Source of the DNA: Candidatus Nomurabacteria bacterium RIFCSPHIGHO2_12_FULL_42_19
Lineage (GTDB): Bacteria; Patescibacteriota; Minisyncoccia; Phycocordibacterales; UBA9973
NCBI GenBank assembly: GCA_001786955.1
Contig: MFUM01000009.1
Span: 552 to 64,551 of the forward strand
Direction: 5' to 3'
DNA: 64,000 nucleotides
Below are positions 7,788-59,619 of the stretch, one piece after another. The stretch's first letter is position 1. Each line of letters begins with the position of its first letter. The notes below the pieces were generated by a model. It was not told the origin of the DNA. It did no database searches and saw only the letters and a program-made list of their open reading frames with translations. The position numbers and the translations under genes were made by a program.

Positions 7788-7851
7788 GGGGTTTTGAGGC
7801 TGTCGAGCCGAAAACTTCAGGATTTTTTAAGCTTTAAAAAATCCGTACCGG
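7788..7851 (+). repeat. Copy 1 of a roughly 64-nt conserved structured element, with A/T-rich inverted-repeat flanks at 7768-7784 and 7852-7871
   Basis: GGGGTTTTGAG-ggctgtcgagcc-GAAAACTTCAGGATTTTTTAAgctttAAAAAATCCGTACCGG. It is near-identical to 59556-59619 except for compensatory changes in the inner hairpin (ggct/agcc versus gcgc/gcgc). Confidence 0.7.
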
Positions 7852-15021: not shown

Positions 15022-15062
15022 ATAGCGAAAATACTAAGAACTCTGCGATAGCAGAAAGTTTA
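15022..15062. repeat. 40-nt palindromic repeat (copy 1) between the gdhA stop and the Cas2-like stop
   Basis: aatactaagaactctgcgatagcagaaagtttagtaatt has an outer stem tactaa/ttagta and an inner stem tctgc/gcaga. A direct-repeat partner lies at 15581-15621. Confidence 0.65.
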
Positions 15063-15076
15063 GTAATTTTCATGGT

Positions 15077-15436
15077 TCACTTTTTAAAATCGTACTCTTT
15101 TGCCAACTTGAAAATCTTGAAACCGTTTTTTATTTTTATCTTTTCAATGTAGTCTAGAAATTCTTTAGGTAACGGAGATGGTCCAACCCATACACTTTTT
15201 TGAATCATAGAATAATTAAATTTTTTCAAATGCCAGCGGAGCCATTCCCTTTCGGCTTTTTTAGTTTCCGGAATATCGAACATCACTATTAGATTTTTGG
15301 GAGCGTTTTGGTCAAATTTGAAATGAAATTGTTTTAAAGAATCTATTTTCTTTTTTATATATTTTTGACCTTTAAGAGTTATCATCAGCCCCGCATCACT
15401 ATGTTCTATAAAACCAGTTTTACGAATGTAGGACAA
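15077..15436 (-). CDS. Orphan Cas2-like protein (Cas2/VapD-fold C-terminal region with a roughly 45-aa N-terminal extension)
   Basis: The C-terminal segment LIVMFDIPETKKAEREWLRWHLKKFNYSMIQKSVWVG matches the Cas2 pattern hydrophobic strand-D-I-...-RR-LRR-L-K-...-G-x-x-Q-SVF. No cas1 or CRISPR array is present in the window. Confidence 0.35.
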   Translation of the reverse strand: MSYIRKTGFIEHSDAGLMITLKGQKYIKKKIDSLKQFHFKFDQNAPKNLIVMFDIPETKKAEREWLRWHLKKFNYSMIQKSVWVGPSPLPKEFLDYIEKIKIKNGFKIFKLAKEYDFKK

Positions 15437-15580
15437 AGTTCCGCTTAAACAATTCTAAGAATAATTTTTGAATTTTGGAATACCAAAAAGATTCACACGG
15501 CTTCCTTTATATCTCAAAGACGTGGCACTTAACTCTTTTAAAATTTCATAAACAAGGCTCACGAGTTATATTATATCACA

Positions 15581-15621
15581 AATACTAATAAATCTGCGAT
15601 AGCAGAGTTATTAGTAAATAA
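15581..15621. repeat. 40-nt palindromic repeat (copy 2) upstream of the Cas2-like gene and of tRNA-Val
   Basis: aatactaataaatctgcgatagcagagttattagtaaat has the same core ctgcgatagcaga and the same tactaa/ttagta arms as copy 1. Confidence 0.65.
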
Positions 15622-15694: not shown

Positions 15695-15767
15695 GGGCGG
15701 TTAGCTCAGTTGGTAGAGCGTGTCTTTGACGTAGACAAGGCCACAGGTCCGAATCCTGTACCGCCCA
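15695..15767 (+). tRNA. tRNA-Val (anticodon GAC)
   Basis: GGGCGGTTAGCTCAGTTGGTAGAGCG-TGTCT-TTGACGT-AGACA-AGGCC-ACAGG-TCCGAAT-CCTGT-ACCGCCC-A. It ends 1 nt before the tsaD ATG. Confidence 0.85.
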
Positions 15768-15768
15768 C

Positions 15769-16845
15769 ATGAGAATTTTAAGCATTGAAACATCCTGCGA
15801 CGACACGGGGATAAGCATAATGGAGGCAAAAGGGGGCGTTCTAAACGCTTCTTTTAAAATCCTGGCAAATAATTCAAATTCACAAATAAAAATCCACATT
15901 CCTTATGGCGGAGTTTATCCGGCATTGGCCAAAAGAGAACATAATAAAAATTTGCCGATTCTTCTGGAAAAAACATTAAAAGAAGCGAAATTAAAAAATA
16001 GAAAATCTCCCGTGGATTTGATTGTCGTCACTCACGGACCGGGGCTGGAAATCGCGCTTTGGACAGGCATTGTTTTCGCCAAAGAATTGGCAAAAAAATG
16101 GAATGTTCCTTTGATGCCCGTAAATCATATGGAGGGGCATATATTTTCAGTATTTGGAAAACAAAAAGGTGAATTTTTAATACCTAAAATAAAGTTCCCT
16201 GCTCTTTCTTTGCTGGTTTCCGGAGGACATACGGAATTGGTTTTGATGAAAAATTTTATGCAATATAAAATCATAGGCGAAACTCTGGATGATGCTGTCG
16301 GGGAAACATTTGACAAGGTCGCAAGAATGCTCGGCCTTCTCTATCCCGGCGGGCCGGAGATTTCCAAACTGGCCGAATTTCTACGGCGAAAAGAAAAACA
16401 AGCTTCGGAGATTAGTTTTTCGGTAACTCTCCCCCGCCCTATGCTTTATTCTAAAAACTTTGATTTCTCTTTTTCGGGACTTAAAACCGCTGTTCTATAT
16501 TTGATCAGAGACATTGGCAAACCGGATGAAAAGACAAAAGCGCAAATTGCCCTGGAATTTGAAAACGCGGTTATTGAATGTCTCGTTCACAAGACAGCCA
16601 AAGCCGTTGAAAAACACGGGATTAAAACTTTAATTGTTGCCGGCGGAGTTGCCGCCAACAAACATCTAAGAAATGAAGTGAAAAAACTTGAAGATAAAAA
16701 AATAAAATTATTTTTTCCGATTAAAGAACTTTCAACTGACAATTCTATCATGATTGGTATAGCTGGATATTTTAACTATATCAAAAACAAAAAGAAAACT
16801 CTAAAAGCAGGCAACATCAAAGCAACTGGCAATCTAAGGCTTTAA
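15769..16845 (+). CDS. tsaD: tRNA N6-adenosine threonylcarbamoyltransferase TsaD (Kae1/Gcp)
   Basis: N-terminus MRILSIETSCDDTGISIM and an ASKH-fold metal site (HMEGH). Confidence 0.9.
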   Translation: MRILSIETSCDDTGISIMEAKGGVLNASFKILANNSNSQIKIHIPYGGVYPALAKREHNKNLPILLEKTLKEAKLKNRKSPVDLIVVTHGPGLEIALWTGIVFAKELAKKWNVPLMPVNHMEGHIFSVFGKQKGEFLIPKIKFPALSLLVSGGHTELVLMKNFMQYKIIGETLDDAVGETFDKVARMLGLLYPGGPEISKLAEFLRRKEKQASEISFSVTLPRPMLYSKNFDFSFSGLKTAVLYLIRDIGKPDEKTKAQIALEFENAVIECLVHKTAKAVEKHGIKTLIVAGGVAANKHLRNEVKKLEDKKIKLFFPIKELSTDNSIMIGIAGYFNYIKNKKKTLKAGNIKATGNLRL

Positions 16846-16866: not shown

Positions 16867-16947
16867 ATCCCGTTAGAGATAACGAGATACATGTTTTGAG
16901 GTTTAAAATAATAACTATAATAAAATTATGAAAATCTCTAACGGGAT
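16867..16947 (+). promoter_or_regulatory. valS leader hairpin pairing the 5' UTR with codons 3-7
   Basis: atcccgttagagat (16867-16880) is the exact reverse complement of atctctaacgggat (16934-16947). The GAGG Shine-Dalgarno and the ATG fall in the loop. Confidence 0.45.
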
Positions 16948-59555: not shown

Positions 59556-59619
59556 GGGGTTTTGAGCGCGGCGGCGCGAAAACTTCAGGATTTTTTAAAC
59601 TTCAAAAAATCCGTACCGG
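59556..59619 (+). repeat. Copy 2 of the roughly 64-nt conserved structured element, inside a 15-17-bp inverted-repeat shell (59530-59546 / 59629-59645)
   Basis: GGGGTTTTGAG-cgcggcggcgc-GAAAACTTCAGGATTTTTTAAacttcAAAAAATCCGTACCGG. Outer inverted repeat is gttgaaaactaaaaa / tttttagttttcaac. Confidence 0.7.

Follow-up and report, generated by a model that had tools for sequence, protein, structure and literature searches.

A Broken PaaX-Type Gene in a Nomurabacteria Genome and the Two 34-bp Palindromes That Bracket It

Introduction

We describe a small locus of Candidatus Nomurabacteria bacterium RIFCSPHIGHO2_12_FULL_42_19, contained in a 64,000-nucleotide stretch of contig MFUM01000009.1 that is referred to below as the window. 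On its minus strand, at 15077-15562, lies a gene for a 161 amino acid (aa) protein in which a winged helix is followed by a Cas2-like domain of the type found in the repressor PaaX; the reading frame is broken by a nonsense codon, and in this genome the gene is a pseudogene. Two 34-bp palindromes bracket it, one upstream at 15583-15616, the proposed operator, and one downstream at 15032-15065. The domain identity of the protein, the presence of the nonsense allele in four assemblies, the conservation of both sites among relatives, the geometry of site and promoter and a concerted change of the outer site hexamers lead us to consider it likely that the locus holds a recently inactivated, autoregulated Patescibacteria mini-PaaX bracketed by two putative binding sites of its own.

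Patescibacteria have tiny genomes with very few recognisable transcription factors, and the 161-aa protein is among their most conserved small proteins, with 1816 close homologues (matches in a 90%-clustered database, mostly of 161 aa and from Nomurabacteria/Paceibacteria) and a Cas2-like half that is almost invariant. A 50%-clustered library yields 2657 family representatives at E ≤1e-3, and among the matches listed the family is confined to Patescibacteria (Nomurabacteria/Paceibacteria). Searches of the available literature on PaaX with Cas2, on Cas2-like regulators and on Patescibacteria with PaaX turned up no description of it. PaaX itself (COG3327; PDB 8A39, 3L09 and 3KFW) is the phenylacetyl-CoA-responsive repressor of E. 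coli and Pseudomonas.

The Interrupted Gene

The gene begins with a GTG at 15562-15560 and ends with a stop codon at 15079-15077. Its 3' part is a 119-aa open reading frame (ORF) with a TTG start (15077-15436, minus strand), catalogued as P0093 in public assemblies and correctly picked out by the original prediction, which credited it with an N-terminal extension of about 45 aa. Translation places that extension in a longer frame that is open up to the GTG save for a single TAG at 15455-15457 on the minus strand, leaving the 119-aa ORF as a remnant 3' of the nonsense codon. In the nearest homologue, P0001 (161 aa, 98% identity over 161 aa), the corresponding codon is CAG for Gln, so that the change is Q36* and cuts the winged helix short. 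The window allele also carries T150I, at a position where Thr is at least 90% conserved.

Base for base, the Q36* allele recurs in L190-L192, three metagenome assemblies made from different samples, and is therefore a real strain variant rather than a read error; three further samples (L001-L003) have the intact allele. Reassignment of TAG as a sense codon was ruled out, as the neighbouring gdh gene ends in TAG. Since the gene is broken while both of its flanking sites are intact, its loss would be recent.

Domain Architecture and Fold

The C-terminal half of the protein matches PF20803 ('PaaX protein central Cas2-like domain', PaaX_M) with 51.5 bits and an E-value of 1e-13 at a cut-off of 24, and the 119-aa ORF alone does so with an E-value of 6e-14. 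Cas2 models are cleared by about one bit (PF09827, CRISPR_Cas2, 24.6 versus 23.8; TIGR01573, 25.8 versus 24.5); for the 119-aa ORF alone PF09827 gives 25.6 bits versus 23.8, and the homologue P0115, with a Cas2 profile score of 23.4, falls below the cut-off. Of the hidden Markov models that had been singled out for comparison at the outset, CRISPR_Cas2 passes, if marginally, and PaaX_C fails; much the better fit than Cas2 is PaaX_M, with 51 bits versus 24-26.

An AlphaFold2 (AF2) model built from a 73-sequence alignment, with a predicted local distance difference test (pLDDT) score of 88, has an N-terminal winged helix (helices 3-12 and 36-48, wing 52-61), a linker helix (63-74) and a C-terminal beta-alpha-beta-beta-alpha-beta domain (residues 91-152). 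It supersedes a first model from a shallow alignment (pLDDT 65) for which the Foldseek matches had been weak. With the newer model Foldseek E-values are weak (0.01-0.1), and an alignment that spans the two domains is obtained only with members of the PaaX family, namely Rv0674 (3kfw) and PaaX of E. coli W (8a39); the N-domain alone retrieves operator-bound CggR and MarR-type winged helices and the C-domain alone retrieves Cas2 chains with probabilities of 0.87-0.97. A single-sequence search of the PDB gave no match, and a profile search of it gave one weak match only, to the winged helix of S19e. The protein is a winged helix joined to a Cas2-fold domain in a PaaX-type arrangement that lacks the PaaX C-terminal domain.

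Six residues, D96, R105, R109, S123, W125 and G127, are invariant among the 73 sequences down to 27% identity. D96, within FDIPE, occupies the Cas2/VapD catalytic position at the end of beta-strand 1 as predicted by the AF2 model, and its catalytic role is putative; E. coli PaaX has LLLLSEGL at this position, without an Asp. The family shares with Cas2 and VapD a ferredoxin-like beta-alpha-beta-beta-alpha-beta fold, the Asp that ends strand 1 and a QKSV strand. It differs from them in the DNA-binding winged helix that is joined to this domain and in having PaaX_M as the closest profile. The Cas2-like C-terminal signature that was first recognised from the sequence therefore stands at the level of fold and signature, by virtue of the marginal Pfam and NCBIfam passes, the Foldseek matches to Cas2 chains and the conserved Asp.

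We have asked whether the locus might be a degenerate CRISPR-Cas remnant, with a true Cas2 and two leftover repeats, or might encode the VapD-like toxin of a toxin-antitoxin pair. Beyond the marginal passes of the Cas2 models, some NCBI homologue records are named Cas2 and the size of the repeats is near that of CRISPR repeats. Such an origin is nonetheless hardly credible in view of the DNA-binding winged helix and the far better fit to PaaX_M, and the gene is monocistronic between its two sites with no adjacent small partner gene. There is no cas1 in the window, as had been noted before, nor among the annotated neighbours at 15 encoding places, other loci not having been screened for cas genes; a CRISPR-like array is likewise missing from the window and from ~190 related loci, apart from an unexamined repeat of 98-nt period in L080. 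A single gene with one 'repeat' on either side does not make an array, and in every locus the 'spacer' is the gene itself, which sets the spacing of the copies. The L080 repeat consists of a 20-mer, CGAGATACCATTTCTCTATC, that occurs three times at 47-262, indicating a tandem repeat.

Public automatic names for the family include 'DNA-binding transcriptional regulator PaaX', 'CRISPR-associated endonuclease Cas2' and hypothetical protein. The Cas2 name, which NCBI gives to homologues P0018, P0084, P0089 and P0115, is probably an over-annotation from a marginal TIGR01573 match. To our knowledge Patescibacteria are noted for lacking CRISPR components, and Cas2 labels on such genes would inflate the counts of these components in the group; the data rather illustrate the Cas2 fold in use outside CRISPR.

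The Two Palindromes and Their Conservation

The upstream palindrome, TACTAATAAATCTGCGATAGCAGAGTTATTAGTA at 15583-15616, reads on the plus strand as outer hexamers TACTAA and TTAGTA, spacers TAAA and GTTA, and inner arms TCTGC and GCAGA about a central GATA, the core being at 15593-15606. Its downstream counterpart, TACTAAGAACTCTGCGATAGCAGAAAGTTTAGTA at 15032-15065, lies 11 nt past the stop codon of the regulator and 21 nt past that of the convergent gdh. In both palindromes the outer hexamers are 6/6 complementary, and both contain the exact 14-mer TCTGCGATAGCAGA (15042-15055 and 15593-15606), of which the 64 kb hold no further exact copy. A search with the 13-mer core that allows 2 mismatches is expected to return 0.71 chance matches in the window, and the 64-kb window contains zero orphan palindromes, that is, palindromes away from the gene. 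The two copies of roughly 40 nt reported in the original prediction are accordingly both present, with coordinates that differ by a few bases and a functional unit of 34 bp; copy 2 was rightly said to be near tRNA-Val/tsaD, the tRNA starting 78 nt from its end instead of about 75.

Conservation was assessed in 80 loci from GTDB species genomes, 77 of them with both flanks available, a core match being one with 2 mismatches or fewer. The core occurs on both sides of the gene in 61/77, on one side in 11/77 and on neither in 5/77 of these loci, and random 125-nt windows from the same loci reach the core score 4.4% of the time. A homologous site is found upstream of the gene in 67/78 loci and downstream in 69/79, and in every homologue locus first examined TCTGC-N4-GCAGA is present both upstream and just downstream. 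Within 1.23 Mb sampled around the genes 116 well-formed sites are gene-adjacent and 7 are elsewhere. The pairing of gene and sites persists with wholly different neighbours: the window gene lies between tRNA-Val/tsaD/valS and gdh with a nucleoside triphosphate (NTP)-transferase gene, and the loci L011 and L012 have a UvrD-like helicase gene and pheS.

Aligning 136 sites on their centre resolves a unit of the form hexamer-N4-TCTGC-N4-GCAGA-N4-hexamer. Counted from the centre, positions 3-7 are conserved, with 1.2-2 bits; positions 8-10 are paired no more frequently than expected by chance; and positions 12-17, which carry no more than 0.3-1.2 bits, show 85-100% Watson-Crick pairing where 0.34-0.71 is expected. 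Beyond position 18 pairing decays. The central four bases are of three types, TATC/GATA, CATG and AGGT/ACCT, and the type follows the protein subfamily and is equal on both sides of the gene.

Promoter and Terminator Context

In the window an extended -10 element, TGaTATAAT (15570-15578, minus strand, with TATAAT at 15575-15570), is placed 7 nt ahead of the GTG start codon, and the upstream site covers about -54 to -20 of the inferred promoter. A simple sigma-70 scan, which found no -35 match, did not call the window promoter. The same arrangement recurs among relatives, where 67 upstream sites have a -10-like hexamer after the palindrome (TATAAT in 33, TATACT in 17), with TG one base upstream of this hexamer in 32/67 loci and the start codon 6-7 nt after it in 54/67, a spacing that implies a leaderless mRNA. 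The core ends either 16-17 nt or 25-28 nt from the -10 box, two classes of distance that are about one helical turn apart.

At both upstream and downstream sites the flanks are A-rich on the left and T-rich on the right, and across loci the downstream core begins 7-71 nt past the stop codon. As RNA, the palindromes fold on either strand with about -15 to -18 kcal/mol (z-scores -4.6 to -6.3), and the downstream site of the window gives -15.3 and -16.4 kcal/mol with z-scores of -4.8 and -4.6 on its two strands. A T-run follows this site on both strands and it is called terminator-like. Its position, with the regulator gene and gdh converging on it, makes it plausible that the site serves both for bidirectional termination and for a second binding event.

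Flanks and terminator-like calls of this kind, together with the A-run/T-run flanks of orphan sites between convergent genes in L058 and L083, are also what would be seen if the palindromes were just the usual intrinsic terminators of this lineage, insulating a small gene to whose product they bear no specific relation. We find this very improbable, as 116 of the 123 sites in the 1.23 Mb sampled flank this one gene family, the geometry of upstream site and promoter is fixed, other genes use unrelated hairpins, and paralogs in one genome have hexamers that differ from each other yet agree on the two sides of each gene.

Variation of the Outer Hexamers

The outer hexamer is usually identical up- and downstream of one gene and different among subfamilies, and it changes in concert with the start of the predicted recognition helix. 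Helices that begin with NSLSGT go with TACTNN, the type found in the window, those with SSLRGT go with TGTTAN, RSIRTT with TGACAC, ESIYNT with CTATAC, GSLKSG with GGTAGC and KSVQIT with GGCAAC. Where a genome has two or three paralogs each has a distinct hexamer, as in MFTH01, with TACTTA at L024 versus TGTTAA at L027, and in JAENWX, with CTCTAC at L066 versus GGCAAC at L080. What emerges from these comparisons is a candidate recognition scheme with a fixed inner core, outer hexamers that shift with the recognition helix and paralogs that would be insulated from one another within one cell. We regard a helix-hexamer 'code' of this sort as a strong lead rather than a proven fact.

Comparison with PaaX and Proposed Mechanism

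The operator of E. coli PaaX is TGATTC-N27-GAATCA, and the protein represses its own promoter through steric hindrance (PMC9493321). By inspection of the sequence we find TGATTC-N27-GAATCG directly upstream of paaA in E. coli K-12. The family described here resembles PaaX in its domain order, with a winged helix at the N-terminus and then the Cas2-like dimerisation domain (PF20803). Its putative operator, as read from the sequence, is made up of two 6-bp inverted repeats far apart (N27 in E. coli and N22 here) and overlaps the predicted promoter of the regulator's own gene, which would imply autorepression. It is unlike PaaX in its length of 161 aa versus 316 aa, in the spacer of its putative operator, which holds the near-invariant inner palindrome TCTGC-N4-GCAGA, in the second site 3' of the gene and in the Asp at the Cas2 catalytic position, invariant here. 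Nor are there phenylacetate (paa) genes among the neighbours of the window gene or of L011/L012-type loci.

We propose that in a dimer each winged helix would contact one outer hexamer (hexamer-N22-hexamer), with the conserved Cas2-like dimer positioned over the inner core. A protein so bound at about -54 to -20 should block RNA polymerase at the extended -10, leaderless promoter, and the outcome would be autorepression, as for PaaX at its own Px promoter. The downstream RNA hairpin and U-run would probably terminate the transcripts of both the regulator and the convergent gdh, and the downstream site may double as a second binding site that acts as a roadblock or as insulation. Among the readings offered in the original prediction, that of a regulator with its operator duplicated is the one that has gained comparative support.

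Several points weigh against an autoregulated mini-PaaX. The basis of the proposal is wholly comparative, and a regulator that mainly targets the flanks of its own gene gives no evident physiological output. E. coli K-12 PaaX has three domains, PF07848, PF20803 (33.5 bits) and PF08223, of which the window family has only PF20803: the window protein has no Pfam match to PF07848, the PaaX N-domain, with hhalign giving a weak alignment to the N-domain of E. coli PaaX (E 0.098), and none to PF08223 (PaaX_C), ending as it does ~10 residues past the Cas2-like fold. For a pure dimerisation role an invariant Asp at the Cas2 catalytic position would be superfluous. The association of helix and hexamer is confounded by phylogeny, and in a mutual-information scan of protein columns against hexamer positions the recognition helix did not stand out, the values of all variable columns being raised by common descent. 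The distance between upstream and downstream sites, 539-622 bp, shows no helical phasing, so that rigid looping is not supported and DNA looping between the two sites was discarded. The remaining points concern the orphan sites of related organisms. In 28 of 29 flank-distinct groups, in which about 12 different families of upstream genes are represented, their centre reads TATC on the strand that is sense for the upstream gene, and their spacer and centre bases are near-identical at different loci, though variable across subfamilies. A symmetric dimer on duplex DNA accounts neither for such a strong orientation with transcription nor for this near-identity.

Sites Away from the Gene

A metagenome scan with the pattern TACT-N6-TCTGCKATMGCAGA-N6-AGTA returned 97 stretches, from which 80 loci were analysed. 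Of 92 exact-pattern sites only 40 have a gene homologue next to them, the other 52 being orphans, and a relaxed scan gives 52/98 orphans; related organisms, then, carry the repeat at places that have nothing to do with the gene, which is not the case in the window. In agreement with this, the density of orphans around the genes is ~0.6 per 100 kb, amounting to a handful per genome and roughly equal to the number of gene-flanking copies. The gaps that hold them are very short: most orphans lie between co-directional genes, separated by 2-20 nt from the preceding stop codon and by 3-16 nt from the following start codon, and their neighbours include ScpB, alanine racemase (alr), purL/purQ, ComM, RseP and Cys-rich paralogs in tandem. 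As a rule they have NAAC as the left spacer and AAA, in place of a T-run, after the site. In L045, L058 and L083 the orphans bear the hexamer of the resident gene. Examples among loci L093-L172 are L128:1306 and 3092, L152:5751 and 8780, and L148:10822. L092 has two CATG-type sites 538 bp apart (2175 and 2713), at a distance of 7 kb from its resident gene; they enclose no intact homologue and may mark a decayed paralog.

Repetitive extragenic palindromic (REP) elements of Gammaproteobacteria, together with their REP-associated tyrosine transposase (RAYT) genes (REPtrons), are ~35-bp imperfect, oriented palindromes in short gaps after stop codons, with the gene between two copies. The layout seen here is similar, with oriented sites in short intergenic gaps past stop codons and a gene bracketed by two copies, and we considered a REPtron-like system in which the winged helix guides a Cas2-like, metal-dependent nuclease or nickase to dispersed polar palindromes, the orphans having arisen by copying or excision. 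About half of the exact-pattern metagenome sites are orphans beside unrelated housekeeping genes, their polarity is strong, and the invariant D96, R105, R109, S123 and W125 include the Asp that E. coli PaaX lacks. The near-identity of the orphans where subfamilies vary extends to idiosyncratic bases shared by sites of one contig, with AACATAAGTA common to L133 and L148, and the genes downstream of the ScpB site vary between strains. On the other side, copies are few, no gene occurs in several identical copies, paralogs having 55-70% identity, the window's orthologue group has retained its synteny with tRNA-Val/tsaD, and a scan of viral contigs yielded no relatives. The protein is a winged helix-turn-helix with PaaX_M and not an HUH/Y1 transposase, REP elements number tens to hundreds per genome rather than a handful, and nothing points to recent copying. 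Target-site duplications were not observed, the sole duplication, of 55 nt in L149, having a common assembly k-mer length.

Selection against terminators within operons offers another explanation of the polarity. In 24/27 orphans the RNA hairpin on the sense strand is weaker than that on the antisense strand and the mean T-tail is 2.4 on the sense side versus 5.1 on the antisense side, and the simplest account is that sites within operons are tolerated only in the non-terminating orientation. Near-identical spacers and a fixed loop orientation are not covered by selection of this kind, and a copying process, or one at the level of single-stranded DNA or RNA, thus stays in play. Taking these points together we judge a REPtron-like system to be unlikely. 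A shade less likely still is the specific form in which the family would be a winged-helix-guided Cas2-fold nuclease, nickase or hairpin processor acting on a polar, dispersed 34-bp palindrome in the Candidate Phyla Radiation (CPR), with the Cas2-like dimer reading or cutting TCTGC-N4-GCAGA and the variable arms providing paralog-specific addressing. Were it correct, a nuclease acting on dispersed polar palindromes would be a new kind of repeat-protein system, with implications for the way in which Cas2-like proteins were first brought together with palindromic repeats. As to a small mobile unit, another of the early suggestions, the conserved synteny with tRNA-Val/tsaD speaks against it for the window locus, whereas for the family the existence of orphan copies elsewhere leaves it some probability.

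One may also suppose that the element works at the RNA level, with transcript hairpins bound or cut by the Cas2/VapD-like domain so as to control mRNA processing or stability. Some Cas2 and VapD proteins are RNases, the transcribed sites, both downstream and orphan, prefer UAUC in the loop by strand, orphans begin shortly after stop codons and the hairpins are stable, as described above. The upstream site, however, precedes the inferred transcription start at a fixed distance from the -10 box, a constraint at the DNA level, and positions 8-10 are not kept paired. Orphans within operons have the orientation that gives the weaker sense hairpin, the winged helix matches DNA-bound regulators, and Rfam has no family for the hairpins. 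We consider an RNA-level element quite improbable. To nuclease, REP-like and RNA-level roles as a group we nevertheless leave a small share of the probability, on account of the polarity of the orphan sites and the invariance of both the inner core and the Asp at the Cas2 catalytic position, while retaining the autoregulated mini-PaaX as the likely reading of the locus.

Additional Observations

In L149 (reverse complement, 941 and 1801) a gene for a 264-aa membrane protein lies between two exact 55-nt repeats, each composed of 21 nt of the 3' end of ScpB and the 34-bp site, and L128:1306 has a single copy. The arrangement has the look of a cassette insertion, and we have not used it as an example of one, since 55 nt is a common assembly k-mer length and the duplication may be an assembly artefact. 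A comparison of filled and empty orthologous sites as a measure of mobility was likewise set aside, the orthologues being too divergent to set insertion boundaries.

Post-stop palindromes with TACTAT/ATAGTA-type arms and other inner cores, ACGGCCGT and TACGATCGTG, occur at L150:9137 and 11049 and after Cys-rich paralogs in L148 and L171, and a degenerate CATG-type copy consists of CAGCCATGGCGT with ACACATTT arms. Palindromes with such other cores suggest a wider family of elements.

The divergent neighbour of the regulator gene, tRNA-Val(GAC) at 15695-15768 on the plus strand, abuts the ATG of tsaD at 15769, and processing of the tRNA 3' end would leave a tsaD mRNA that is leaderless or has a 1-nt leader. 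At homologue loci gene callers extend the tsaD frame across the tRNA, and the predicted products have 386-423 aa rather than about 341-358. Further along, a perfect 14-nt inverted repeat, ATCCCGTTAGAGAT / ATCTCTAACGGGAT (16867-16880 and 16934-16947, with 53 nt between the arms), spans the valS start codon at 16928. Apart from the palindromes, the window has just one repeat of at least 18 nt, an exact 22-nt one, CGAAAACTTCAGGATTTTTTAA, at 7809-7830 and 59577-59598, its two copies being ~52 kb apart.

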